Part shown: in pieces, positions 36,344 to 64,000 of the stretch
Layout of the letters: every line of letters starts with the position of its first letter
Position numbering within the stretch: the first letter of the stretch is position 1
Assembly (NCBI GenBank): GCA_965204355.1
Contig: OZ241983.1
Span: 500,483 to 564,482 of the forward strand
From: Candidatus Poribacteria bacterium
GTDB taxonomy: Bacteria > Poribacteria > WGA-4E > PCPOR2b
Length of the DNA: 64,000 nt
Direction: 5' to 3'
Notes under the pieces: generated by a model
Seen by the model: the letters and a program-made list of their open reading frames with translations, nothing else
The model's database searches: none
What the model was told of the DNA's origin: nothing
Translations under genes and position numbers: made by a program

Positions 36344-36554
36344 AAACCCACTAGAGGCGAAGCAGACACGAATCTATTTCACCGCAGAGGCACAGAGCTG
36401 ACAAGAAGACGAGAGAACGAGGAAGCGAGGAGGCGAGTAAAAACCCGTTCCCTCACATACACGCTTCCCCAATCCTCCGTGCTTCCAATCTTCCATCCAT
36501 CTGCTCTGTGTTTTCCGCGTCTTAGTGGTTGATTTTAGATTGAGGAGAAAGACA

Positions 36555-46844: not shown

Positions 46845-49800
46845 TTACTTGAGTATCAGCATCCGTCGCGTCGCTGTGAATTCTCCTGCTGTCAGCGTAT
46901 AGAAATAGAGGCCACTGGCAACAGGTTCTCCAAGTTGGTTACGTCCGTCCCAATAGGCTGCACGGCTGCGACTCTGATACATACCCGCTGCTTGATGCCC
47001 CACCGCCAACCGCCGAATTGATTGCCCATTCCCATCATAAATCGTCAGCGTGACTTCTGCCGGCTCCGCCAACTGATACGGAATCCATGTCTCCGGGTTA
47101 AATGGGTTTGGATAGTTACGGAGCAATGCAGTCTCATCGGGAATCAGTGAAGCCAACAGTTTTTCGAGATTTTCGATGCCCTGTCTGAACGCGAGCGAGC
47201 CGTCGTCTTCCAACCGTGCCTGTGCGATCCACGCTTCTATCATTGCCGCATCTATGTCATCTGTCCCAACCAGCGGTGCTGCGGGAGCGGCGGCGTTGCC
47301 GATTGCCTGCGCGACGACAGCCAGATCAAGGATGTTGACAACACCATCACCGTTGACATCCGCAGGATCGTCAGCAGAAACCCTTTGATTCAGTTTCTGT
47401 GCGACAAGCACCAGATCCACAATGGTGACAACCCCATCTCGATTTACGTCTCCCGTAGTAAGCTCGCCCTCAACAGTGATGCGGATTCCGTGGGCAATTG
47501 CATCAATCGTATCACCGCCAAGCGAGACGAACTGGAGGTTACGCAGTGTTACCTCCGACTCTCCACTCGATTTCGCTTTGAAGCGCGCCTTCACCAGGGT
47601 GCCGGTGCCGGTGACGCCTTGAGTGGATAGCCGCGCAGCGGTGAGCCCAGTGATTTGACCTTTACTATTATCAATGCTCCCACTTTGAAAGAAGGTTGCT
47701 GCGCCTGTCTTTAGGAAACCACCTTCGCTCACGTCTACGGCTTCAAGTATGTTGGGATCAAACACAATATCAAACTGATAGCCCATCAAGTTCGAGACAT
47801 TTCGGGCGTGAATATCGAGGGTAAACGTCTCGCCACGATGAATGGTTGCTGGAGAAATGGTGTATTCAACACCGGTATTTGCCACGGTATATTCCGTACC
47901 CGGTTCAAACCCAAAAAAGCCGTTACCATCGTCATCATGGATACTAACCGCGACTAATAAGACATTTCTTCCCTGCTTCAGTGCGACTGAGACAAAATCT
48001 TGGTAATCGTTACCATGCCAATAAGGTCTGCGCCTGTAAATCGCAGTCCCGTTGAGCCAAACCTTTACCCCGCGTTTGCCGCCGACGTACATCGTTGTAT
48101 TCTGTTCCCGCGGAGAATACAGCGATATAGAACCGTAGACCGCTCCATCTCCGTGGATCGCTCCGTCAAGATGGGAACGTTTCAACATATCTTCAATGAT
48201 AGCTCCGAGGTTATTCCAGCCCGTAGGTGGGAGGTTATGGTAGGTCCATACATCATCACCGACAGGTTTTCCTGCTGTTGCCCCACGGGTAGCAATCCCG
48301 ATCTCTGTTACCGTGCCCCCACTCACTTCTGATAGCAAATCTATGTTTCTGCTATCCAGTCTTGCCTCCGGTAACACAACCCATAGCCACGGGCCCTCTA
48401 TTTTCGGTCCTCCTTTTGGGAACGCCGGATTACCGAACCATGTAAGTTTTATATTCTCTCGTAACCCGTCCAAAGGCGAAAGGTCAGAAATCTTGTTGTC
48501 GTAGATTCCCAGCCATTCCAAGTTGGCTAACCCTGCAATCGACGATATATCCGATATATTGTTCTCACCAAGATCCAGACGAGTTAACTTGGCTAACCTC
48601 GAAAGGACTGATATATCTGATATTCCGTTGCCGCGAAGATACAGTTCTTTCAAACCCGTTAAACTCGCCAAAGGCATAAGGTTTGATAGATCTGCGCCAC
48701 AAATATCTATCCTTTCCATTTTTGTTAATCCTGCAAGGGGTGACAGATCGGATATGGGGTTGCCCCATGTATTAATGCCTTTCAGGTTGATTAACCCTGC
48801 AAGGGGCGATATGTCAGAGATTTTGCCTTTGCCATCGGAAAAAGCTATCCACTCCAGATTAATTAGTCCTGCAACCGGCGACAAGTCGGTTACCAAAGTG
48901 TCATCCAATACCAATTCAGTGAGATTTGTTAAACTTCTCACTGGAGATAAATCGGATACCAAAGTGTGATTCAACACCAGATATTTGAGGTTTTTTAAGC
49001 CCTGCAGGGGTGATAGATCAGATATGGGATTATAGTGAAGGGAGAGTCTACGCAGGTTGATTAATCCCGCTATCGGCGAAAGGTCAGATACCTGATTGCC
49101 CTGCCCTCCCCAATGACCAAGAATTAACTCGTCCAAATTTGTTGCAAACTGAAGCCCTGTCAAATCTTGGATGCCCTTGTTCCGTGCATCGAGTTCTCTC
49201 AACCTTTTCATCTCCTCCACAGTAATTGGAGCATTGGGGTTTTTACCAAGTTCCTCTGCAATTGCAGCACGGAGGTTGGGGTCAGGAATACGAACAACGG
49301 TTCCCGGCGGCTGGTCAGGCTGCGAGGGACTGTCTACCTGTTCGTCAGGGAAATCCAATGCGTAAATGATCGCAGGAAAACTTGATGTCCATGCGTCCCG
49401 TTTCATGCTGCCATTGGGACTGTCCAATACCAATAATCCTGCGTTCTGTAGCCCTACATTCTCACGGATCTTCTCTTGGAAGGCTGCTGTCTCTAACCCA
49501 ACGACCGCGGCAGCGTATTCAGCGTCCACCTCACCCTGAAACGCCTCATGGAAACGAGCAATCGGTTCAATATCATCAACCGCGCCGTCTGTCGCTTCAA
49601 GAGCACCCCTATACCGCTCCATATCTTCAGCGATGAGCGCGTCCAGCCTCGACTGCTCGACGTAAAGGCGTAACACCTGCGCTTTGTCATAAGTTGGGTT
49701 GGCATTGCTCTCTATCACGGGACGCACCTGATCCACAACGGCTTTTATGCCTTCGGTATGGCAACCGAAACAGGAGAGTCCGTTCCGCACCGTCGGATCA

Positions 49801-51008
49801 CTCGCTGCGGGATTAGAAACAATCCCTATCGGTGCTGCGTCCAACCGCGAACCCGCCGCCGTCGTGATGTAGTAACCTTGTAGCCCGTTGGGCAGGTTGA
49901 AGATAACCTCGCCGCCATCATGGGTGAAAGCGAGGGGGTGGTTGAAGATGTTCTGTGTGCCGACACTGCCAGCGAAGTCGTAACTTTTCCAATATGCGTC
50001 ATAGCGAGAGGTATGTCGTTCTATCACCCGGTTGTTTGGAGACACCCCTGAATTGTTAGTCCCTGCCCGCCAGACACGCACACCCGGTGCATTGGTGATA
50101 TTGCGCGCCACATCAACCTCAAGTCGAGTTTCTAATTCCCTATCTGTCAGTGGCAAATCGAGTAGATCGTGGTACAATGGGGGTAAAGATGCTGTCGCAA
50201 GAAACCAGTCAACATGCACCGATGGCATATCACACTTCATCTCCGTCTGTAACCGCGTCAGTTGTACCTTCAGGGCGGTCTGTGTTGGGGCATCATACGC
50301 GATATGGTAGGGATATGTGCCTTCAATCTGCGTCCAAGCGTCATTGACATCCCACTCGTAGTGTCTGAGGTCGATGTAGAAAATTGTCCCCTGAGTGTCT
50401 ATCGGCTCCGGGTTGGTAACGGCACTCCCCCATGAGAGGCTGTTGACTAACTTGTTAAGTCCCTTACGGTATTCTTGGAGGATGCTCGGTGGCTCGCCTG
50501 CGTTGTAGAGGTGGGTGAGTGTGAAGTAACGGGCAAAGGCGCGGTTAAATGGTGAGAGAGTCATCAGGTGGGTTTCGATGCTATTGAGCATTTCACTGGG
50601 GGAGATGAGGCGACGGTCTGTAGGAGCGGGTGCCGTCCAATCGGGTGCACTGGCTAAAATCCAGTTTTTCACTGTTTCAATCTGCGGATCGGGTAGAGGG
50701 GGGCCTCCCAGCGGCATCAGTTGTCCCCCTTCTCCAAGAAGCCGCTTATACAGTCTAGAAGCTTCTGGGGTTCCCGGAACAACGGGACCGTTTTCTGTAA
50801 TGAGTGCTTTGTGTTCCATTAAGAGTGTTTCTTTATAGGCACCGTTAGGACCGTGACAGTTGAAGCAGCTCTGTTGAAAGATGGCGTAGGTATCTAGGGC
50901 AATCTGTTGTTGGGCGGATATGTTTTGGGAGCATGCGATGAGGATTAATAGACTGATGAGTGCGATGCGATACTGCTGCTTACAAACCACTGAATAACGC
51001 TTACACAT
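46845..51008 (-). CDS. giant secreted multidomain protein (1.39k aa) with cytochrome c (2x CxxCH), leucine-rich repeat, cohesin-like and dockerin-like domains and a T9SS C-terminal sorting domain
   Basis: Signal peptide MCKRYSVVCKQQYRIALISLLILIACSQNISAQ (start ATG 51008). CFNCHG and CFGCHTE heme motifs. ~11 LRRs (L..L.L..N.ISDLSPL). Cohesin-like beta-sandwich. Two dockerin-like DVNRDGVV/DVNGDGVV calcium loops. C-terminal NYPNPFNPETWIPYQL...IYDGNGQ...WDGRNQLGEPVASGLYFYTL matches the Por_Secre_tail pattern. Confidence 0.7.
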   Translation of the reverse strand: MCKRYSVVCKQQYRIALISLLILIACSQNISAQQQIALDTYAIFQQSCFNCHGPNGAYKETLLMEHKALITENGPVVPGTPEASRLYKRLLGEGGQLMPLGGPPLPDPQIETVKNWILASAPDWTAPAPTDRRLISPSEMLNSIETHLMTLSPFNRAFARYFTLTHLYNAGEPPSILQEYRKGLNKLVNSLSWGSAVTNPEPIDTQGTIFYIDLRHYEWDVNDAWTQIEGTYPYHIAYDAPTQTALKVQLTRLQTEMKCDMPSVHVDWFLATASLPPLYHDLLDLPLTDRELETRLEVDVARNITNAPGVRVWRAGTNNSGVSPNNRVIERHTSRYDAYWKSYDFAGSVGTQNIFNHPLAFTHDGGEVIFNLPNGLQGYYITTAAGSRLDAAPIGIVSNPAASDPTVRNGLSCFGCHTEGIKAVVDQVRPVIESNANPTYDKAQVLRLYVEQSRLDALIAEDMERYRGALEATDGAVDDIEPIARFHEAFQGEVDAEYAAAVVGLETAAFQEKIRENVGLQNAGLLVLDSPNGSMKRDAWTSSFPAIIYALDFPDEQVDSPSQPDQPPGTVVRIPDPNLRAAIAEELGKNPNAPITVEEMKRLRELDARNKGIQDLTGLQFATNLDELILGHWGGQGNQVSDLSPIAGLINLRRLSLHYNPISDLSPLQGLKNLKYLVLNHTLVSDLSPVRSLTNLTELVLDDTLVTDLSPVAGLINLEWIAFSDGKGKISDISPLAGLINLKGINTWGNPISDLSPLAGLTKMERIDICGADLSNLMPLASLTGLKELYLRGNGISDISVLSRLAKLTRLDLGENNISDISSIAGLANLEWLGIYDNKISDLSPLDGLRENIKLTWFGNPAFPKGGPKIEGPWLWVVLPEARLDSRNIDLLSEVSGGTVTEIGIATRGATAGKPVGDDVWTYHNLPPTGWNNLGAIIEDMLKRSHLDGAIHGDGAVYGSISLYSPREQNTTMYVGGKRGVKVWLNGTAIYRRRPYWHGNDYQDFVSVALKQGRNVLLVAVSIHDDDGNGFFGFEPGTEYTVANTGVEYTISPATIHRGETFTLDIHARNVSNLMGYQFDIVFDPNILEAVDVSEGGFLKTGAATFFQSGSIDNSKGQITGLTAARLSTQGVTGTGTLVKARFKAKSSGESEVTLRNLQFVSLGGDTIDAIAHGIRITVEGELTTGDVNRDGVVTIVDLVLVAQKLNQRVSADDPADVNGDGVVNILDLAVVAQAIGNAAAPAAPLVGTDDIDAAMIEAWIAQARLEDDGSLAFRQGIENLEKLLASLIPDETALLRNYPNPFNPETWIPYQLAEPAEVTLTIYDGNGQSIRRLAVGHQAAGMYQSRSRAAYWDGRNQLGEPVASGLYFYTLTAGEFTATRRMLILK

Positions 51009-51125
51009 AGAGAGTGGCTCCTGAAATGCGAGTTTGTAAAGGTTACGGCACACGGCGTCGCGACAAATTGGGACGATAATCTGTGCCCTCTGTCTCATCC
51101 GTTGAATCCGCGATTTAGACAAAGG

Positions 51126-51210
51126 GAACATGTCGCCCCTCTGGGGCTTGGAAGGAAGGGCCTATCGCCCGGCTATAAACATATCGCCCCTCTGGGGCTA
51201 AATACCCCCA
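51126..51210. repeat. REP-like bipartite element, family B (copy 3)
   Basis: AACATGTCGCCCCTCTGGGGCTTGG-(N)-GGCTATAAACATATCGCCCCTCTGGGGCTAAATACC, between the giant gene's start and the AKR gene. Confidence 0.75.
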
Positions 51211-54724: not shown

Positions 54725-55621
54725 TCAACGGTTGAAGAAGAAATTTTCCGCTGTCTTGAACAGGATCTGTTCCTTGTCTGAATCGCTTAGAAAATCGGCG
54801 TGGTCGTTGATAAGCGCGATTGCTGCGGGAAAATCGGTATGTGGGTTATCCATCACCACTGGACCGCCGCTGTCGCTTTCCCACATACAGCGTTCTGGTC
54901 CAAAGGCGTCCACCACTCGCCGGATCAGTGGCAGGAGATCCAGATACGGAGCCTTTCCATCCCCCAACGCTTGGAAGGGACCCAGCTTGACCATCACGCG
55001 CTTGTGCTTTGCCATAGCGCAGAGCGTTTTGAGGTCGTCTTCGGGGAAGATGCCGTCTCGTATCCGCACCCCACAGATGTGATCCAGAATCACAGGGGTT
55101 TCGGGGAAACGGGTGCACATTCGATCCAGATCTGGCAGATCGTCAAGCCCCATGAGGAAACTCAAGGCGAGGTTATGCGCTGCCCCCGCTGCAAACATCC
55201 CCTCGTACCCCGGATAGTCGAGCCATTGGGTGACATCACCAATCGGCATACGCGCGCTTTTGCCACCGCGTATACGAAAGGCGTAGATGCCCCGACGGGA
55301 CAGTGCGATCATCGTTTTATCTGGACTGGCGAGCGACACGTCCGTCACTGCTGGGACAATGCCTGTGCCCACAAAGGTGTCTGGGGCGTTGGCGATCAGA
55401 TCTATGATGTAACTGTGATCGAGACCGTACCACGTCATTTGGACGAGGTTTATCCGGACTTTACCGACCGCGCGGCTGTACTCGAAATGCTGTTCTGGGG
55501 TAAAGGAAGGCAGCCACAGGTCGCTTGGGCTGAAACCGGGTGCCAGTGGATAATTATCAAAGTCGTCTGTCCAAACGTGGATATGTGCGTCGATGACTCT
55601 ATCTTGTACGTTTATTCCCAT
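54725..55621 (-). CDS. amidohydrolase-2 family metal-dependent hydrolase (PF04909-like)
   Basis: IDAHIHVWTDDFDNYPLAP... with the HxH metal site at the N-terminus; ~300-aa TIM barrel. Confidence 0.7.
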   Translation of the reverse strand: MGINVQDRVIDAHIHVWTDDFDNYPLAPGFSPSDLWLPSFTPEQHFEYSRAVGKVRINLVQMTWYGLDHSYIIDLIANAPDTFVGTGIVPAVTDVSLASPDKTMIALSRRGIYAFRIRGGKSARMPIGDVTQWLDYPGYEGMFAAGAAHNLALSFLMGLDDLPDLDRMCTRFPETPVILDHICGVRIRDGIFPEDDLKTLCAMAKHKRVMVKLGPFQALGDGKAPYLDLLPLIRRVVDAFGPERCMWESDSGGPVVMDNPHTDFPAAIALINDHADFLSDSDKEQILFKTAENFFFNR

Positions 55622-55907
55622 TTGTTTTTTTGCCCTTTGCTTTGTGTTGGTGTGTTTCTTGAGATATTATCACAGATTCTACTAGGAAACCATGAAAAAC
55701 TTCACTGGGGGAAAGCGGCTATTGTGGTATTTTTGCGACGGCGGTGTGGCACAGTTTCGACAGTCTCTTTGTGAGGATGACACTCCCTTCGAGATTACGA
55801 CTTATGTTAAAAGCAGGTGCACAGTTGTCCGAAGAAGGCGTTTTTCGAAAAACTCCAATACATTTCCCATGATTCGGGATAGTTGTGGTATCTATGGTAA
55901 ACCCTAA

Positions 55908-55970
55908 AAACAGATAGACGCTTTCGCTCCCCGTGTATGGTAGGCGCTGTTTCCAACTGCGCCTATACGG
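55908..55970. repeat. REP-like element, family A (copy 4, first hairpin only)
   Basis: AAACAGATAGACGCTTTCGCTCCCCGTGTATGGTAGGCGCTGTTTCCAACTGCGCCTATACGG is near-identical to 19026-19086. Confidence 0.75.
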
Positions 55971-56064
55971 TTTGTATCAGATCCTATCTAACTCCGTTGA
56001 AATATTGACAGAACCTGATGAACCTTTTCAGTCCACCCAACACTAAAAGGGGTAGGAGGACATT

Positions 56065-56604
56065 GTGGCAAGGGATATTGGAGAATATCACTCCCAGATT
56101 ACGCGGTTCGTTGATGAGCTCTGTCGTGTCTACTATAGACACAGCCAGCCTGAAGACCGTAGGGATATCAGCAGCGAGGTTGCCCTGATCACTCATCAGA
56201 ACCGTGAGCAGATTGCGGACGAATCGGAAGAGGTGTTTCTAGCGTGGCTCCATCAGATTGCGAGAAATGTAGTTCGAAACTGGTCACGTCGTGAAGGGAC
56301 CGCTGCTAGGCGCGCACTTGGCAGTCTGGACGACGAAAATTTTGGGGCTGAAAGGATACCATCAGATTCACCTGCACCAGAAACAGATCTCCTCGTTCAA
56401 GAGAGAATGGCGGTTGTTCGGGACGCAATCTCGGAGCTTCCCTTGATTCATCAACAGGTGGTCTGGTTATTTTACGTTGAGGAACTCTCGGTAAAAAAAA
56501 TCGCAACAAAGCTCGGAATTAGACAAGGAACGGTTAAAAGCCGTCTATACCATGCAAGAGAGCAGCTCGCGACGCGTTTAGCATCCTATTTTGCCGAGAA
56601 TTAA
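56065..56604 (+). CDS. RNA polymerase sigma-70 factor, ECF subfamily
   Basis: Region 2 (FLAWLHQIARNVVRNWSRR) and region 4 HTH (LSVKKIATKLGIRQGTVKSRLYHAREQL); GTG start as called. Confidence 0.75.
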   Translation: MARDIGEYHSQITRFVDELCRVYYRHSQPEDRRDISSEVALITHQNREQIADESEEVFLAWLHQIARNVVRNWSRREGTAARRALGSLDDENFGAERIPSDSPAPETDLLVQERMAVVRDAISELPLIHQQVVWLFYVEELSVKKIATKLGIRQGTVKSRLYHAREQLATRLASYFAEN

Positions 56605-56624
56605 TAATAAGAGGAAAGGAAACT

Positions 56625-56975
56625 ATGAAGCATCAAGCACTACTTCTTGTCATCTCTTGTATGACACTCTCGATCGTTCTTGGTGGGTGCCATGTAGAAG
56701 TAAATGTAACAGAAGAAGAGGAAGATGGTTTTTTGACAGTCAAGAACCGTTCAAATGTAACAATCACGGGTATTTTTATCGCTGCTCCCGAAGACGATTC
56801 TTGGGGGGCAGATCAACTCAAATCCGATGTTCTACTACCTGGTGGTATAGTAATTTTTACTATTGAACCTGGCACCTATGACATCAGGGTTGTATCTGAA
56901 CATCATCGAGATTTCATATATGAAGCTGACATCTCGAGTGGGTGGACGACAACCGTGGCAGTCAGATTCAGATAA
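56625..56975 (+). CDS. small lipoprotein (hypothetical)
   Basis: Signal peptide with lipobox LGGC (MKHQALLLVISCMTLSIVLGGC); 116 aa; SD GGAAAGGAAA upstream. Confidence 0.5.
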   Translation: MKHQALLLVISCMTLSIVLGGCHVEVNVTEEEEDGFLTVKNRSNVTITGIFIAAPEDDSWGADQLKSDVLLPGGIVIFTIEPGTYDIRVVSEHHRDFIYEADISSGWTTTVAVRFR

Positions 56976-57035
56976 GGAAGCTGCAAGAACGACCTTCCTG
57001 CAAAGAAACCACGTTGAGAAAGGAATAAAACAGTA

Positions 57036-59534
57036 GTGAAATACCCCTTATTGATATGGAATGCGAGTTTGTATCTGTTCTTCATTCCTTTATTGTTAAT
57101 TCTGTTACTCCCACTTGCAGCGCTATCTCAAACTGGGACAATTGAAGGCACCGTTTATGATGGAAATACTAACACACCGATAGTCGGGGCAGATGTCCGT
57201 ATCCTCGGAACCGATGAACGCCAAACAACCGACACAGAAGGGAAATTCTGGTTCATAGAAATGGTTCCAGGCACCTACACTGTGTCAATAACTCACGAAA
57301 TGTACGACACCCCTACAGAAACCGATATAGAGGTAATGGCAGGTCATACCACCCAAGTAAAATTGTATCTCGGCGAGGTGCTTATGCTCGAAGAGGTTAC
57401 TGTTGAGGGGGAACGTCTCCCACCAACAGTTAGTCGAAAAGACATCCGTGGAAGCGAACTGATACGTATCCCCGGCGTCGGTAACGATGCGCTCAAAGGG
57501 TTGACCACGCTTCCGGGAATCGGTGTTCCCAATGATTACTTCGGCATTCTCTATATCCGTGGAAGTGAGCCGGGATCTAACCTCTACTATTTCGACCGGA
57601 CACCGCTCGGATATCCGTTTCACTGGGGCGGTCTGCTCTCGACCGTCAGTTCGGAAATCATTGATAAAATTGATATCTATGCCGGTGGATACGGTGGGGA
57701 ATTTGGGTTGGATTCGCAGGCGGTGTTGGACATCCAATCACGCGATAGCATAGAGGAGCAGATAAGCGGTAAATTTAACCTGAATATCCTCTACTCCGAA
57801 GGGATGCTTGAGCGCAGACTTGGGGATGAGGGATACGTCTCTATCGCTGGACGACGGAGCTACATCGATCTCATTGTTGGACAGTTCATTGGTGAACAGC
57901 AGTTTCCCTACTTTTCGGATTATCAACTCAAATTTGCTTATCCCCTCGGTGAAAAGCATCGCCTGACGCTCAACAGCTTTGCTGCAACCGACCATTTCCA
58001 CGTTGAAGAGACGACATCTGTAGAAGTTACGGAAGTGGAGAGTGGCCAAATGGAAGAAGAAACGCAGACATTTGAAGGGGGGCGCGCCTCTGCCTTTTTC
58101 AAAAATGGGTTTAACGCACAAGGCCTCCATCTCCGTTCAAATTTCACTGAAAATCTTACCTCCCACCTCTCGCTTACCCGCTCCTTCAATTTTCTCACTA
58201 TCAACTTTGAAGCGCCCATCACGGAGTCGTATGAATTCGGTTCAGACGGTGAACTTGTGTCTGAAGTAGACTACGGTCACTACGATATAAATATCAGGGT
58301 TCCAGTCTATACGTTGAGGGAAGACGTGTCCTACCGATTGAATCTACGCCCTGGCGATACTAGGAATCAAAGTGCGCCTGCCGCATTGGAAACAGGACTC
58401 CTTCTTTCCTTCAGTCCTGCCAACAGTTTCGAGGACAGCAGGCTCCCGCAATTTGAAGAGCGCGCGGACCACGAAGAAACGGTTACCCTAGTTGTTGATG
58501 AAAATGGGGGGATGGTCGAAGAAACTATCGTGGGTGGAGAGGGATTGGAGTTAGTCGATATTGAAGAAAACCGCTACGAATTCGGGCACGATTTCCGGCG
58601 CGCTGAGGGCTACTTACAGGGGCGATATGACCCGCTGCCTTTTCTATCTGGTGCGCTAGGGATTCGGTTGGATTATCTGGATGTGACAGGGCAGACCTCC
58701 ATTCAGCCGAGGGGGAGCTTAAGTTTTGCGTTGCCGAGCGGTTCCAATCTCCGGTTTGCGTATGGACATTATGAACAGAGTCCACAACCGCATCAGATAC
58801 TGTCGGAGAACGGGAATTCTGCGTTGGAATCCAGCCTTGCACGGCACTATATCATGGAACTTGAAGGCGAACTCTCAGCTCGAACAGAATTCAAGTTTGC
58901 TACCTATTACAAGGATATGCAGAAGTTGGTCACAGCGGATGAGATAGCGAATTATCTTAATCAGGGCACTGCGTATGTTAGCGGCGCAGAGGCGTTCCTG
59001 CGACACCGTGTGCCGGATAAATTCTTTGGCTGGATCTCGTATGCTTACACACACGCTGAGCGGCGCGAGAATCCGGGGGATTCCTACCGACCTTATTTTT
59101 TTGATAACACCAATATTGTTAGCGTTGTTGCCAATTATAACTTCACGCCCAAGTTTGAGATTGGCGCGAAGTGGCAGTATTTGAACGGAACCTCTGAGGT
59201 GCCAATTAGTTCTGTCGTGCTGGTTCAGGACCCACTGACACGTGGATTGAACCCGCTTTTGGCGGATATTGATGAAGCCGTCACTGCCGAGCTGACCCCG
59301 TATCACAAGTTGGATCTCCGGCTGAGTTACAAATTCGACTTTATGGGCTTACGGATAGGTGCGTTTCTCGATATTCTGAACGTCTACAACCGGAAAAACA
59401 GCGTGAAATTTGTCTTTACTCCGGATGAGCTGCTTGAGGTCCAAGGTGAACAGGTGGAACTCGAAGAGCCTGAAATCTTTGAGGCGCAGCAATTCCCGCG
59501 CATTCCCTATTTTGGTCTAACGGTTGAATTTTAA
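57036..59534 (+). CDS. TonB-dependent receptor-like outer-membrane protein with N-terminal carboxypeptidase-regulatory-like domain
   Basis: Signal peptide; CarbopepD_reg-like segment (GTIEGTVYDGNTNTPIVGADVRILG...GKFWFIEMVPGTYTVSI); plug-like segment; long beta-barrel region ending in a terminal aromatic (...GLTVEF). Confidence 0.6.
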   Translation: MKYPLLIWNASLYLFFIPLLLILLLPLAALSQTGTIEGTVYDGNTNTPIVGADVRILGTDERQTTDTEGKFWFIEMVPGTYTVSITHEMYDTPTETDIEVMAGHTTQVKLYLGEVLMLEEVTVEGERLPPTVSRKDIRGSELIRIPGVGNDALKGLTTLPGIGVPNDYFGILYIRGSEPGSNLYYFDRTPLGYPFHWGGLLSTVSSEIIDKIDIYAGGYGGEFGLDSQAVLDIQSRDSIEEQISGKFNLNILYSEGMLERRLGDEGYVSIAGRRSYIDLIVGQFIGEQQFPYFSDYQLKFAYPLGEKHRLTLNSFAATDHFHVEETTSVEVTEVESGQMEEETQTFEGGRASAFFKNGFNAQGLHLRSNFTENLTSHLSLTRSFNFLTINFEAPITESYEFGSDGELVSEVDYGHYDINIRVPVYTLREDVSYRLNLRPGDTRNQSAPAALETGLLLSFSPANSFEDSRLPQFEERADHEETVTLVVDENGGMVEETIVGGEGLELVDIEENRYEFGHDFRRAEGYLQGRYDPLPFLSGALGIRLDYLDVTGQTSIQPRGSLSFALPSGSNLRFAYGHYEQSPQPHQILSENGNSALESSLARHYIMELEGELSARTEFKFATYYKDMQKLVTADEIANYLNQGTAYVSGAEAFLRHRVPDKFFGWISYAYTHAERRENPGDSYRPYFFDNTNIVSVVANYNFTPKFEIGAKWQYLNGTSEVPISSVVLVQDPLTRGLNPLLADIDEAVTAELTPYHKLDLRLSYKFDFMGLRIGAFLDILNVYNRKNSVKFVFTPDELLEVQGEQVELEEPEIFEAQQFPRIPYFGLTVEF

Positions 59535-59587
59535 CGGTTCGCAAAATAGGTTTGAAGCATTAAATATTGAAGGGAGGTTGAAGAACG

Positions 59588-60259
59588 ATGAAATGTAATC
59601 AAGTAGAGGAAAAGTTAATCCATTCGATTGATGAGGAATTGTCTCCACAGATTCGAGAGCATCTTCTCGGCTGTGAAGAATGCGAGCAGAAATATAGAAT
59701 CTTACAGGAGACACAGAAATCTCTAAGGGATTTTGGCCGTGCCGTTCGAGATGGTTCCATTTCGATGGAGGCACCGCCATTTCCGCCGGTTCGACGCCGT
59801 TCCTTCTGGATCGAAATACGCGATAGCCTGAAAACACCGGTGCCGGTGTGGGTGCCCTCTGCTATCGGTGTGGTGGGGTTGTTGTTACTCGTTATGGCGA
59901 TTTTTTCGCCGCTCACCCCGCCGATGGAATGGGGCCCACAAAAAGGGAATGAAAATGCAGGTCGCATCGCTCCACCCCTCTCGGCGGAGGGGATGTTGGA
60001 GTTTCTCATTATGCCTACACCAATGGACGCAGCACAACTCGCCGCCTCAATCGAAACAGTTGAAACGTTCCTGAAGATGCATCCGGATGATCTCGCGATG
60101 CACGCCAAACTGGTTGAACTGTATCAATCTCGACTTAAGTTGGGGGAACTGTCCGCCGGCGAGCGTGACGCCATGACAGAGAAATTATCACTTGAACGAC
60201 AACGTTTTTCAGCGCTGCTGGAAAATTTTACGAAAGGGGTAGAGAATGATTCAGAATAG
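59588..60259 (+). CDS. zf-HC2 anti-sigma factor (single TM)
   Basis: MKCNQVEEKLIHSIDEELSPQIREHLLGCEECEQKY carries the H-x3-C-x2-C anti-sigma zinc motif, followed by the TM helix VWVPSAIGVVGLLLLVMAIF. Confidence 0.65.
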   Translation: MKCNQVEEKLIHSIDEELSPQIREHLLGCEECEQKYRILQETQKSLRDFGRAVRDGSISMEAPPFPPVRRRSFWIEIRDSLKTPVPVWVPSAIGVVGLLLLVMAIFSPLTPPMEWGPQKGNENAGRIAPPLSAEGMLEFLIMPTPMDAAQLAASIETVETFLKMHPDDLAMHAKLVELYQSRLKLGELSAGERDAMTEKLSLERQRFSALLENFTKGVENDSE

Positions 60260-60293
60260 CTTGGGACAAACGAGTGGATGGAAGGAGGGAAAG

Positions 60294-63200
60294 ATGGAAG
60301 GATGGAACCAATCTTCCATCTTTGCTTCCGCTTGCATCTTGATTCGATGGGCGCTTTCGGTCTGTAGTTTATTTGTAATTTTTTCACAACCCATCTACGC
60401 TGAACAATATGCCATCCTCGTGGGCGTTTGGGACTATGAAAATCCAAACTTACAGCTTGATGCTCCGCCAAACGACTTGAAGCTGATGGAAGCGGTGCTC
60501 TCGGCACAGGGCGTCACACAGGAACAGATGCACATCCTCCCCAATCCGAACAAGGCACAGATTCAGCGTAAATTCCGGGAACTCAGCCGACGCCTGACCC
60601 CTTCCGATAGCCTGCTTTTTTATTTTAGTGGGCATGGGACGCAGATAATTGACAAACTCGGAACTTTTCCCGGGGATGAAGCGAAAGGGCGATACCCGGA
60701 CAGGAACGATGAAGCGCTGTTGCCTGTGGACGCGGATCTGGCATCACCCAAGACGTACCTATTGGATGACGAACTCAATACCTTACTCCAAGAACTACCG
60801 ACGCAGCAGGTCTCCTGCATTATTGACACATGCTACTCCGGCGACATACTTCGAGAGATTCGTCTGGGACGGCCCAAAGGCTCGCCGGTGGCGGACACCC
60901 CAACGGGGATCGTTCAACCTACCCAGATTGTAAGCCATACGGAGGACATCTTAGATGAATCCGCCGATTTTGCGCTGCTGTTAGCGGCTGCTGCCTACAA
61001 TCAGGTTGTTCACGAACTACGCATCCCGATTGGCAAGACCTATCTCCCTGTCAGCGCGATGACCTATTCCCTCTATCGACGGGTGTTTTCCCGGTTGCAA
61101 AATCCTGCAAATGGGGCGATTGGGGGGCAAGGGTCCGGTGGACTGACGTATCGACAACTTGTTCAGCACGTTCAGAACGATCATAGGCAGTGGAATTTGG
61201 CGTGGCAGCCTGTCCTTGAGGGTCCGGAGGATCGCTTCGATGAAACGTTTCTCCCTAATGGTTTAATGGTACATCAGGAGAAAATGTTAACCCTCACGAC
61301 GATAAAGGGACAGTCGATAGCGGTGAGCCAGCGGGCGTTGGCGCTTGCCGGCGGTGGCAGTTTCCAACTGGGTGCCGCAAGTGGTGTTAACACCCGACAT
61401 TGGGCGATTGTTATCGGCGTGGATACCTACCCATCCCCCTTCCAGTCGCTCAAGTATGCCGCCGATGATGCCAAAGCGGTCGCGCAGGTGCTCCAAGACG
61501 CAGGAGCCAACGTGACGTTGATGACACCCGATAGCCTAATTCAACCAACGAAAGCGAATGTAATTAAACAACTCCAACGACATGCTCAACTTGAAGCGGT
61601 GGATCTGCTGACCGTTTATCTTTCCGGGCATGGAGAGGATGTCAATGGAACAGGTTACTTCCTGCCGATGGATGTCACCGATCCACTCATGGACAGTGGG
61701 CTGAGTCTCGAAGATCTCTTTGCGATTCTCAACAGCGCAAACGCCAAACATCGCTTTGTCATTGTTGATGCGTGCCGTGTGGCACCAAAGGAGCAGTTTG
61801 TTGTAGCGTTGTCGCGTTATAGTGAGGAGAGTAACATCATCTTCACCGCGTGTGATAGCAACCAGTGGGCACCTGAAGTGCCGCGCCTGAAACATGGGTT
61901 GTTTACCTACTTCTTGCTCAAAGGGTTGCGCGGCGACTACCAAGACCGGGGCGCAGCGGGTCCCGATGGGACTGTCACGGTATTGGGGTTATTGGATTAT
62001 GTGACACGCGGCATCGAAGATTGGCACTCCCACCTGTCCGAAGAGCAACACTACCCGCAGCAGATTACGCCCCGCGTTTTTTATAACGGGAAATATATTT
62101 CACTGTTAAACAACCACGGAATTGATCCGCCGGTGATCAATAACGAAGGGCTGCCGCCCCGAATTGCCAACGTTTCTCCAATTCAACCCACCCGTGATTT
62201 AGAGTCATTCCCTCCCTCGGAGAAGAGTGGTGGTATTGCGTCGCCAAACGCAAAAGGCGATGATTTACATCTACCTATGACAATTTCACTGATTCCGTGG
62301 ATAAGCACTGCCGGATTTCAAGATCCTAACCGCAATATCACAACGAACCTTTCCCTCAACATCATCGCGGGCTATCATACGAAACTTGATGGGCTTGAAT
62401 TGGGTGGAGTTTTGAACATAAAGGGAGTTGAAGTACAGGGTATACAAGTTGCCGGAGTCGGCAATATCGTCGGTAGGGATGTAGATGGTTTTCAGATCTC
62501 GGGCGGACTCAACGCTGCGGGTAGAGACGTGGAGGGTTTCCAAGCCTCGGGAGGGCTTAACGTCAGCGGCAGGGATCTCGACGGCTTTCAAGGGGCTGGT
62601 GGGGGTAATTTTGTGGGTCGCGACCTCCAGGGATTGCAGATTAGCTCCGGGCTAAATCTCGTTGGGAGAAATGTGTTAAGTCAAGGTCTACAAATCGCAG
62701 CAGGACTCAACATTGCAGGGACTTTAGAGGGAACACAAATCAGCGCAGCCGCTAATATCGCGCTTGGTCGGGACCAAGAAGCAAACATCCCGTACGCCGG
62801 CACACAGATTGGGGTGGTCAATATTGCGCGCGGCATGATTGGCACACAGATTGGACTTCTCAACATCGCTGGGCATGTGGGTACGACACAGGTGGGGCTT
62901 CTCAACGTCTCCGGACGGATGTCCGGCCTCCCGATAGGATTAATCAGTTTTGTTAAGAATAACCCGCTGCATCTGCAACTGTGGGGTAGCGATACGGAGG
63001 TCGCAAACCTTGGGATTCGACTCGGTAGCCGGCACGTTTACAGTCTGTTGATGGTCGGCAGTTATCCGCACGGCGATTTGGGCAGATGGTCGTCTGGGTT
63101 TGGTGTCGGTGGGCATATTCCACTTAGCAAGCGACTTTTTCTGAACGTTGACTTTATTACGCGTGGGGTGGCTTATACCGACGAGTCGGGGGAGAACACG

Positions 63201-63485
63201 GCTATCCGACAACCCACGAGCAGTTTGGTACGAGTGACTTATACCGACAAGTTGGGGGAGAACACTTGGGAGTATGGCGAACAGGCCGTCTTGAACAAAC
63301 TGCGCCTTGCGTTCGGCTGGGAGCAGCACAAGTGGTTCAGTGTCTTTGGTGGTGTTTCACTCAACGTCCTCGTCTCGGATAGACGGGACACTTCGGATTT
63401 TGGATACGGATTTGAGCACGTATATCGAAGCGATGATACGACCGTTCGGATTTGGCCCGGGTTCTTTGCGGGGGTTCAGTTTTGA
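60294..63485 (+). CDS. double caspase-domain (peptidase C14) protein with beta-solenoid-like repeat region and C-terminal outer-membrane-barrel-like tail
   Basis: Signal peptide. Caspase domain 1 (YAILVGVWDY...FYFSGHGTQ...CIIDTCYSG). Caspase domain 2 (WAIVIGVDTY...VYLSGHGED...FVIVDACRV). ~25 degenerate 10-11-aa repeats (GxQ[IV]xGGLN[IV]xGR...). The protein ends ...FFAGVQF. Start set at MEGWNQ (60294); the ORF could start at 60246. Confidence 0.6.
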   Translation: MEGWNQSSIFASACILIRWALSVCSLFVIFSQPIYAEQYAILVGVWDYENPNLQLDAPPNDLKLMEAVLSAQGVTQEQMHILPNPNKAQIQRKFRELSRRLTPSDSLLFYFSGHGTQIIDKLGTFPGDEAKGRYPDRNDEALLPVDADLASPKTYLLDDELNTLLQELPTQQVSCIIDTCYSGDILREIRLGRPKGSPVADTPTGIVQPTQIVSHTEDILDESADFALLLAAAAYNQVVHELRIPIGKTYLPVSAMTYSLYRRVFSRLQNPANGAIGGQGSGGLTYRQLVQHVQNDHRQWNLAWQPVLEGPEDRFDETFLPNGLMVHQEKMLTLTTIKGQSIAVSQRALALAGGGSFQLGAASGVNTRHWAIVIGVDTYPSPFQSLKYAADDAKAVAQVLQDAGANVTLMTPDSLIQPTKANVIKQLQRHAQLEAVDLLTVYLSGHGEDVNGTGYFLPMDVTDPLMDSGLSLEDLFAILNSANAKHRFVIVDACRVAPKEQFVVALSRYSEESNIIFTACDSNQWAPEVPRLKHGLFTYFLLKGLRGDYQDRGAAGPDGTVTVLGLLDYVTRGIEDWHSHLSEEQHYPQQITPRVFYNGKYISLLNNHGIDPPVINNEGLPPRIANVSPIQPTRDLESFPPSEKSGGIASPNAKGDDLHLPMTISLIPWISTAGFQDPNRNITTNLSLNIIAGYHTKLDGLELGGVLNIKGVEVQGIQVAGVGNIVGRDVDGFQISGGLNAAGRDVEGFQASGGLNVSGRDLDGFQGAGGGNFVGRDLQGLQISSGLNLVGRNVLSQGLQIAAGLNIAGTLEGTQISAAANIALGRDQEANIPYAGTQIGVVNIARGMIGTQIGLLNIAGHVGTTQVGLLNVSGRMSGLPIGLISFVKNNPLHLQLWGSDTEVANLGIRLGSRHVYSLLMVGSYPHGDLGRWSSGFGVGGHIPLSKRLFLNVDFITRGVAYTDESGENTAIRQPTSSLVRVTYTDKLGENTWEYGEQAVLNKLRLAFGWEQHKWFSVFGGVSLNVLVSDRRDTSDFGYGFEHVYRSDDTTVRIWPGFFAGVQF

Positions 63486-63535: not shown

Positions 63536-64000
63536 TTATTCGTTAGCCCAATCCAACAGTGCTTTATCGGGTGATGGGATATCGTTGATGGAGGTGTAGT
63601 AATAGCGTTCCCAGTTGAGTTGGGGTAACCCTGTGAAGATCATCAGGTTGAGTGGGTATTCATCGGTATCGGCGGCACGTCGAAAATCGTCCCGAAACAG
63701 GAAAGTAGGCTTGCCGAGCGCTATCGCTATCCCTAGCTCAATCATGACCCCCTCATCCGGCGGGACTCCGTTCACGACGGCAAAAATTGCGTCCGCATCG
63801 AATACATCCTGTTTGTCCTTTTGTCCGAGTCTGTACGCCCAACCGGGTGAAAATCTGTCCTGGTTATTTCGTTCAAACGGCTCCCATACTTCTAAGCCAA
63901 CCGCTTCCAATGCCTTAACGAGAGCGGGTAACACGGTTTTTCGCTGCTGCTCTGAGAAGCCGTAGGGATTTGCGAGATATATTGTCTTTTTTTTCGTTAC
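63536..64000 (-). CDS. nucleoside 2-deoxyribosyltransferase-like protein (5' end beyond window)
   Basis: ...KTIYLANPYGFSEQQRKTVLPALVKAL...DADAIFAVVNGVPPDEGVMIELGIAIALGKPTFLF matches the PF05014 pattern (N-terminal KxIYLAGP, central E-x-G). The reading frame stays open to the window end. Confidence 0.45.
   Translation of the reverse strand, partial: VTKKKTIYLANPYGFSEQQRKTVLPALVKALEAVGLEVWEPFERNNQDRFSPGWAYRLGQKDKQDVFDADAIFAVVNGVPPDEGVMIELGIAIALGKPTFLFRDDFRRAADTDEYPLNLMIFTGLPQLNWERYYYTSINDIPSPDKALLDWANE

Follow-up and report, generated by a model that had tools for sequence, protein, structure and literature searches.

The five-gene cluster and its conserved core

The DNA analysed here is a 64-kb stretch (the window) from Candidatus Poribacteria, an uncultured phylum of sponge symbionts. 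Between positions 56065 and 63485 it carries five open reading frames (ORFs), all on the plus strand, which encode a sigma factor of the extracytoplasmic function (ECF) type, a predicted lipoprotein, a TonB-dependent receptor, a single-pass anti-sigma factor and a large protein in which two caspase domains precede an outer-membrane module of the LA_2272 family (Table 1). An earlier note on this DNA had placed the same five ORFs at the same coordinates with matching domain content, and that inventory holds. The note had also called the separation of the anti-sigma gene from the sigma gene unusual wiring; we find instead that genes were inserted into a conserved sigma/anti-sigma/caspase triad, so that the separation is not one of design. 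By sequence comparison, the conserved unit is one of three genes, namely an ECF sigma factor, a single-pass anti-sigma factor and a caspase fused to an LA_2272 module. A metagenome scan seeded with a six-sequence alignment (A6) returned at least 388 relatives, and 80 loci were kept. Upstream genes were counted at 54 metagenomic single-caspase loci of the Myxococcota type with at least 1.4 kb of upstream sequence. At 44 of these, a sigma gene and a homologous middle gene encoding a single transmembrane (TM) helix lay directly upstream on the same strand; the sigma gene alone was found at five, the middle gene alone at three and neither at two, leaving at least one of the pair upstream at 52 of the 54. 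The commonest junction in distant triads was a 4-nt overlap (32 of 60). The functional link of the protease with the sigma/anti-sigma pair, as the earlier note had proposed, is thus supported by the conservation of the triad.

Within the window, the five genes are separated by gaps of 20, 60, 53 and 34 nt, the last becoming a 14-nt overlap if the longer start of the caspase gene is used, and each ORF has a plausible ribosome-binding site. The cluster is bounded on both sides by metabolic genes on the opposite strand and, as had been suggested, the five genes probably form a single transcription unit. Twelve species-level Poribacteria genomes hold the cluster and both flanking genes in one order, with large-protein orthologues that are 76-84% identical; because this synteny is confined to one clade, it says little about function by itself.

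The sigma factor consists of sigma-2 and sigma-4 regions only and belongs to ECF group IV, and what had been presumed to be an ECF sigma factor scores above the cut-offs of curated models (Sigma70_r2, 25.1 bits versus 24; r4_2, 50 versus 25.7; TIGR02937, 70.9 versus 42.9). The 223-aa product of the fourth gene is its zinc-type anti-sigma partner, with binding to the sigma factor being predicted. Its zinc anti-sigma (ZAS) domain, predicted to be cytoplasmic, carries C3 and the motif H25-LLG-C29-EE-C32 (H-x3-C-x2-C with an upstream cysteine), and its helical C-terminal part of about 115 aa is periplasmic. The zf-HC2 model (PF13490) gives the window protein 15.2 bits against a gathering threshold of 22.2 and gives the 55%-identical orthologue from locus L014 32.3 bits. 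No match to FecR or FecR_C was found in the anti-sigma factor, the periplasmic part of which was scanned to an E-value of 10; Pfam returned nothing for the isolated periplasmic domain, and a PDB search with the single anti-sigma sequence gave no meaningful match. Within a five-sequence alignment (A2), the four ZAS-type orthologues all share one lysine in the juxtamembrane linker (EWGPQK/G). In the deeper relatives L013 and L014, the sigma and anti-sigma factors are 63-65% and 54-55% identical, respectively, to those of the window.

Ahead of the sigma gene lies TGAACC-N16-CACTAA, which is invariant at the 12 Poribacteria loci, where the DNA further upstream cannot be aligned, and occurs once in the window against 0.07 occurrences expected. 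The form TGAACC...CACTTA is found in the more distant L013 and L025. The motif is consistent with an ECF promoter through which the sigma factor would regulate its own operon. Among Myxococcota-type loci, a different motif of constant spacing, TGACA(C/G)-N16-GTGTT, lies 5′ of 13 of 50 sigma genes (L026-L105); it occurs 24 times in 647 kb, 13 of them within sigma 5′ regions, and is likely a group-specific ECF promoter.

The two genes between sigma and anti-sigma are accessory. Beyond its lipobox, nothing was recognisable in a domain scan of the 116-aa lipoprotein, in which a PEGA match was weak. The 832-aa protein alone matches CarboxypepD_reg (60.6 bits), falls below threshold for Plug (20.5 versus 23.9) and for a siderophore-receptor model, and in a single-sequence PDB search only its N-terminal domain was matched. 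An exhaustive search placed it in a family of 21,184 representatives, and a 42-member profile of this family matches, over both plug and barrel, TonB-dependent receptors of solved structure at 1e-17 to 1e-20, including 9gbc (8e-20), a SusC homologue (1e-19) and FepA (6e-18); with PfeA, YncD, Cir and FhuA included, the matches range from 1e-7 to 1e-20. Plug is recognised in 40 of the 42 members and TonB_dep_Rec_b-barrel in 24. Because the family profile matches solved receptors and 40 of 42 members match Plug, we assign the protein as a genuine but divergent TonB-dependent receptor, in keeping with the earlier description of it as receptor-like. A sequence resembling the TonB boxes of SusC-type proteins, LEEVTVEG, lies at residues 118-125 (57387-57416), as judged by eye only.

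Receptor and lipoprotein genes are a lineage-specific insertion into an older sigma/anti-sigma/caspase unit: in the deeper relatives L013 and L014, from which both accessory genes are missing, the sigma and anti-sigma genes are directly adjacent. Nearly all of the 80 distant loci likewise lack the accessory genes (two hits). The lipoprotein gene is also missing from four of the 12 syntenic genomes (L003, L005, L008 and L011) and from L025, a locus with a 75%-identical double-caspase gene that has kept the receptor. The G+C content at 55500-58000, spanning the sigma gene, the lipoprotein gene and the 5′ region of the receptor gene, is 0.445-0.48 against 0.51-0.57 in the flanks, which is compatible with a history of inserted genes.

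The earlier note had read the cluster as superficially FecIRA-like, and we considered a model in which ligand binding by the receptor is relayed to the anti-sigma factor, with a surface-exposed protease as an extra. The operon does contain a genuine TonB-dependent receptor, and two Bacteroidota loci (L018 and L024; Table 1) have homologues of it (about 787 aa, 24-26% identity) two genes 3′ of an STN-headed LA_2272 gene, with an LA_2272 gene that lacks a head domain just before each homologue. Receptors of this family also follow two of the 80 distant caspase triads. However, neither the 832-aa protein nor its 42-member family nor the caspase protein gave a match to STN (PF07660), the anti-sigma factor has no FecR, L013, L014 and nearly all of the distant loci have the triad without the receptor, and an 8-stranded barrel such as that of the caspase protein cannot export its head. 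We therefore regard FecIRA-like wiring as highly improbable. The receptor stands outside the core, and its recurrent but loose association suggests a regulated target or an occasional source of signal.

Elsewhere in the window (46845-51131, minus strand) is a gene for a 1428-aa protein that combines leucine-rich repeats with domains of the cohesin, dockerin and FlgD-Ig types. Its eukaryote-like or cellulosome-like make-up is that of surface proteins often noted in sponge symbionts.

Table 1. Features of the cluster, its surroundings and selected comparison loci (window coordinates unless a locus is named)
Feature	Position	Strand	Remarks
Amidohydrolase gene	54725-55621	-	Opposite-strand left boundary of cluster
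Promoter-like motif TGAACC-N16-CACTAA, ECF-type	56019-56046	+	About 20 nt 5′ of sigma start codon; putative function
ECF (group IV) sigma factor, 179 aa	56065-56604	+	GTG start behind AGGAGG; matches to curated models
Predicted lipoprotein, 116 aa, accessory	56625-56975	+	Lipobox LGGC, Cys22; weak PEGA match
Divergent TonB-dependent receptor, 832 aa	57036-59534	+	Signal peptide, CarboxypepD_reg N-terminal domain, plug, barrel
Single-pass zinc-type (CHCC) anti-sigma factor, 223 aa	59588-60259	+	ZAS motif, TM helix; predicted from sequence
Anti-sigma TM helix, residues 86-108	59843-59911	+	Single; positive charges N-terminal to helix
Double-caspase/LA_2272 outer-membrane protein	60246-63485	+	1079 aa with start at ATG 60246; 1063 aa with start at ATG 60294
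Stable hairpin over Shine-Dalgarno sequence and ATG 60294	60284-60329	+	Inverted repeat I3; RNA fold -33.2 kcal/mol, z = -4.55
Caspase domain 1, metacaspase-like	60402-61280	+	His130 (60633-60635), Cys196 (60831-60833)
Caspase domain 2, paracaspase/orthocaspase-like	61395-62015	+	His462 (61629-61631), Cys510 (61773-61775)
Beta-solenoid, LA_2272 repeat	62262-62954	+	About 13 sixteen-residue units (GxQxxGxxNxxGxxxx)
8-stranded OmpA/OprF-like outer-membrane beta-barrel	62964-63482	+	Ends WPGFFAGVQF
Variable, partly duplicated barrel loop, strands 5-6	63195-63272	+	Only disordered part of barrel
Nucleoside deoxyribosyltransferase gene	63536-63934	-	Opposite-strand right boundary of cluster
Insertion sequence (IS) element, HTH_23 + DDE_3 transposase	L013 6682-7921		Exactly in linker between the two caspase domains
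Bacteroidota locus: sigma/FecR/STN-LA_2272, headless LA_2272 (384 aa), CarboxypepD_reg TonB-dependent receptor (about 787 aa)	L018 8179-11734		Receptor homologous to window 832-aa protein
Bacteroidota locus of the same order, headless LA_2272 of 403 aa	L024 7277-10895		Receptor homologous to window 832-aa protein

The double-caspase protein

The close homologues of the large protein (162-167) all contain Peptidase_C14. The protein has a signal peptide, and its start codon is ambiguous. ATG 60294 is preceded by GGAAGGAGGG, the better Shine-Dalgarno sequence, and is the start used by a 99%-identical protein (P0001); ATG 60246 fits the N-terminus of the orthologues, many of which use an overlapping MIQNSL start, and overlaps the anti-sigma stop. 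We consider ATG 60294 the likelier start in the window, so that the overlap of about 14 nt described in the earlier note for the longer start is correct for ATG 60246 and for many orthologues but disappears with the start preferred here. The hairpin over ATG 60294 sits in an insertion of about 29 codons (60262-60345) in the n-region of the signal peptide that is present in only some orthologues. Similar sequence of the CTTCCAATCTTCCA type occurs at 36470-36500 of the window, and L001, L009 and L010 have it 5′ of their sigma genes; the insertion may be a small palindromic mobile element.

Both caspase domains belong to the caspase-hemoglobinase fold and are as complete as the earlier note had held: for Peptidase_C14 (PF00656), with its cut-off of 21.4 bits, domain 1 scores 63.4 and domain 2 scores 65.4. 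The His/Cys dyad of domain 1 aligns to the SGHG and DxCxSG motifs of Yca1 (the yeast metacaspase) and AtMC9, and that of domain 2 to the GHG and DMCR (DxCR) motifs of MALT1, at a weak E-value of 0.03. The SGH and DxC motifs of domain 2 are invariant in all 32 sequences of an alignment (A4) that includes distant single-caspase proteins. Domain 2 is the family-wide head, closest to the Myxococcota-type heads, and domain 1 is a head added in the Poribacteria lineage. A recent tandem duplication was rejected as the origin of the pair, since similarity between the domains amounts to just 17 bits and domain 1, unlike domain 2, does not resemble the heads of single-caspase proteins. We also rejected a natural two-gene, split-caspase version of the protein: in L013 an IS element interrupts the caspase gene of the triad, and in L014 the gene is broken by a frameshift within a 9x long-read contig. 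Just 3′ of the double-caspase gene in L025 (10667-13552) is a gene for a 961-aa ECF sigma factor fused to WD40 beta-propeller repeats.

Of 105 full-length orthologues, 104-105 retain the dyad motifs, and 79 of 80 distant homologues retain His/Cys motifs, suggesting that both domains are catalytically intact, with proteolysis predicted. Each catalytic cysteine has an aspartate at position -2, matching D462 of MALT1, which together with the invariant lysine of the anti-sigma linker suggests cleavage specific for arginine or lysine; these features are offered as leads only. The conservation of both dyads makes cleavage the most economical way in which the head would act. The caspase domains might instead bind and release the periplasmic domain of the anti-sigma factor without cutting it, as functional analogues of STN. 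Such docking would fit the exchange of caspase heads with STN, a pure interaction domain, among relatives, and pseudo-proteases with a caspase fold are common. Moreover, in DdvA of Myxococcus xanthus, a ZAS anti-sigma factor with a fused periplasmic TPR-CHAT region that is proposed to cleave itself, dyad mutants had no phenotype under the conditions tested (PMC11506125). Retention of the His/Cys motifs in nearly every orthologue and distant homologue argues for retained catalysis, however, and makes docking alone improbable.

The C-terminal 416 residues were modelled with AlphaFold on 72 diverse homologues at a mean predicted local distance difference test (pLDDT) score of 89.8, giving a beta-solenoid followed by eight long C-terminal strands and no helix. 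A search with this model in Foldseek returned only outer-membrane barrels, and the matches to the barrel are the 8-stranded OprF, OmpA, NspA and OmpX. The solenoid repeat has a period of 16 residues (lag-16 identity, 26%; consensus GxQxAGxxNxxxxxxx), and among the 105 orthologues its length varies from 211 to 325 residues in 16-residue steps; the earlier count of about 25 repeats of some 11 residues picked up a sub-harmonic of this period. Pfam returned nothing for the isolated solenoid or the isolated barrel. The proposal of a beta-solenoid and an outer-membrane barrel ending in F is borne out, but its autotransporter variant is not: a type Va autotransporter, with a 12-stranded barrel and a linker helix, was rejected on the basis of eight strands, no helix and no Pfam autotransporter domain, and matches to autotransporters cover the solenoid only. 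Among orthologues, no part of the barrel varies more than the loop that joins strands 5 and 6, and its disorder and variability fit an extracellular position if the termini of the barrel are periplasmic. A tandem duplication, 91% identical (63168-63199 and 63234-63265; VAYTDESGENT and VTYTDKLGENT), falls within this predicted extracellular loop.

Membership of the module in the LA_2272 family is indicated by the NF047436 repeat (26 bits versus a cut-off of 25) and by a protein named as an LA_2272 family member (P0155), which is 36% identical over 98% of the module at an E-value of 2e-56 with the C-terminal 416 residues as query. The module occurs in three forms, alone (about 370-430 aa), with one caspase (about 700-730 aa) and with STN and CarbopepD_reg_2 (about 600-680 aa), and for P0210, P0178 and P0236 the STN score exceeds the cut-off of Pfam. 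The Leptospira protein LA_2272 itself is a predicted outer-membrane protein that appears just in lists of such predictions (PMC5348505), and we found no published function for any family member in the searchable literature.

Head domains and neighbours across bacteria

Sigma and anti-sigma genes are adjacent and followed by the caspase-LA_2272 gene in L013, L014, L015/16, L020 and L021. In the last three of these, a single-caspase gene follows a sigma gene and a gene for a single-TM protein of 251-270 aa with 4-nt overlaps, and members of the single-caspase cluster are named Myxococcales or Deltaproteobacteria. The periplasmic part of two of the three Myxococcota-type middle proteins scanned (L015 7192-8001 and L020 5249-6001) gave weak matches to DUF4384 that remained below threshold (20-26 bits versus 27); Pfam lists DUF4384 as co-occurring with caspase domains. 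STN-headed LA_2272 proteins come directly after a sigma factor and FecR/FecR_C at all four loci examined, which are from Bacteroidota, and the two headless members whose loci were checked have no sigma neighbour. Head type therefore co-varies with anti-sigma type, STN with FecR and caspase with non-FecR proteins (ZAS or the Myxococcota-type middle proteins).

This pattern bears on the possibility that the sigma/anti-sigma pair senses alone and that the tethered caspase is its main regulated product, a periplasmic protease that would remodel the envelope or serve its quality control without taking part in sigma activation. An output gene would likewise be co-transcribed with translational coupling, and there may be no output other than the caspase protein, since no conserved fourth gene was found in 57 downstream regions, nor did the receptor emerge as a regular partner of distant triads. 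FecA, furthermore, is sensor and output at once. However, the STN-headed relatives hold the same place behind FecR, where STN serves signalling and is not an effector, and the perfect co-variation of head and anti-sigma type in the loci examined points to direct partnership. On balance, we think it unlikely, although a serious contender, that the caspase is only an output.

The earlier note had further linked the caspase protein to defence or programmed cell death. Both caspase domains do match the generic caspase profile of PADLOC, with the "EACC1-associated caspase" profile below its cut-off (117 versus 140 bits), and the DdvA/DdvS system controls a defence island (PMC11506125). PADLOC gave no further match, however, and no system-specific component; the neighbours are metabolic genes, distant triads have no conserved defence neighbour, and export and membrane anchoring keep the protein apart from targets in the cytoplasm. 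We give very little credence to an anti-phage or cell-death module.

No description of a sigma/anti-sigma/caspase triad was found in the searchable literature, including the ECF re-classification paper without its supplements. The triad is thus a widespread and apparently undescribed variant of ECF trans-envelope sigma signalling.

A proposed trans-envelope protease model

We propose, with moderate confidence, a trans-envelope module in which an outer membrane-tethered caspase head cuts the anti-sigma factor and the freed sigma factor re-activates its own operon. The ECF sigma factor would be held at the inner membrane by the single-pass zinc-type anti-sigma factor, while the 8-stranded barrel would anchor the third protein in the outer membrane and the solenoid, as a rigid spacer of about 6-7 nm, would carry the caspase head into the periplasm together with a flexible linker. 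Upon an envelope signal, the head would cut the periplasmic part of the anti-sigma factor (site-1 cleavage), intramembrane proteolysis would follow, and the released sigma factor would act on TGAACC-N16-CACTAA, thereby placing the inserted receptor and lipoprotein genes of this Poribacteria lineage under the same control. The anti-sigma factor is probably the substrate of the caspase head, and the head its site-1 protease. The surface-exposed protease of the earlier note is not supported: the head most probably faces the periplasm, because the termini of an 8-stranded barrel are periplasmic, the barrel has no secretion pore and STN, a periplasmic domain, occupies the same N-terminal position in relatives. 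In FecA-type systems, STN is the periplasmic domain that contacts FecR.

Several observations weigh against this model. Gene adjacency fits the caspase as the main output of the sigma factor equally well. The periplasmic orientation is one that we infer, and NCBI names the family "surface repeat-containing". The model of the head reaches a pLDDT of only 65.8, a moderate confidence at which domain packing is not readable. A scan for consensus promoters and terminators performed at chance level and was uninformative on operon structure. All compared sequences come from metagenome-assembled genomes or metagenomes, and the sigma/anti-sigma pairs of Poribacteria and Myxococcota are only about 20% identical, such that the two kinds of triad may differ in how they work.

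The module resembles cell-surface signalling and regulated intramembrane proteolysis, yet it is not a FecIRA system by the features that define one. As in FecI/FecR/FecA and the ECF/anti-sigma/SusC-like transducers of Bacteroidota, an ECF sigma factor, a single-pass anti-sigma factor and an outer-membrane partner are encoded together, and the partner has an N-terminal periplasmic head, which in LA_2272 relatives behind FecR is the same STN. The FecA-type partner, however, is a 22-stranded plugged transporter with an STN head, whereas here an 8-stranded barrel and solenoid bear a double caspase, the ZAS anti-sigma factor lacks FecR and the co-encoded receptor lacks STN. The same logic operates in RseA/DegS/RseP, in which a periplasmic site-1 cut of a single-pass anti-sigma factor is followed by a site-2 protease; there the site-1 enzyme, DegS, is an inner-membrane serine protease activated by the C-termini of outer-membrane proteins, whereas in the present module a cysteine protease tethered to the outer membrane would take that part. 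For action of a caspase-fold protease on an anti-sigma factor, the nearest precedents are DdvA/DdvS and craspase. DdvA/DdvS likewise combines a CHCC zinc-type single-pass anti-sigma factor and an ECF sigma factor with a periplasmic His/Cys domain of caspase fold, and its proposed mechanism is also site-1 cleavage followed by RseP (PMC11506125). It differs in that the TPR-CHAT region is fused to the anti-sigma factor, dimeric and incomplete (PMC11506125), whereas the C14-type domains described here are on a separate outer membrane-anchored protein and the window anti-sigma factor, with its small periplasmic domain, has no fused caspase-fold domain. In craspase, Cas7-11/Csx29 of type III-E CRISPR cuts Csx30 bound to an ECF sigma factor, so that a caspase-family protease is again coupled genetically to an ECF sigma factor, by cutting the protein that sequesters it; craspase works in the cytoplasm under RNA guidance, is TPR-CHAT-based and has no membrane components (PMC10028731). 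Among LA_2272 (NF047436) proteins, the 16-residue GxQxxGxxN repeat and C-terminal barrel are shared with the window protein, but most members have no head domain.

More tentatively, we speculate that LA_2272 solenoid-barrel proteins are a class of periplasm-spanning, outer membrane-tethered partners of ECF anti-sigma factors with interchangeable heads. Its caspase-headed members, in Myxococcota, Poribacteria and others, would be the site-1 proteases that release sigma, and the solenoid would be a spacer of tunable length. ECF sigma factors are among the most abundant signalling devices of bacteria and, to our knowledge, the activating step has not been established for most ECF groups. This compact unit of three genes offers a candidate for the activating protease, with clear targets for mutation in its four catalytic residues and a single juxtamembrane linker. 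If the proposal is true, the link between caspase-fold proteases and anti-sigma factors seen in DdvA and craspase would extend to a widespread envelope system, the LA_2272 family would gain its first functional context, and sigma would be switched on by proteolysis in a manner apparently not described before. The STN-headed relatives suggest that STN signalling heads may work from an outer-membrane anchor that is not a transporter. In Poribacteria, the module would control a TonB-dependent receptor in an uncultured sponge symbiont.

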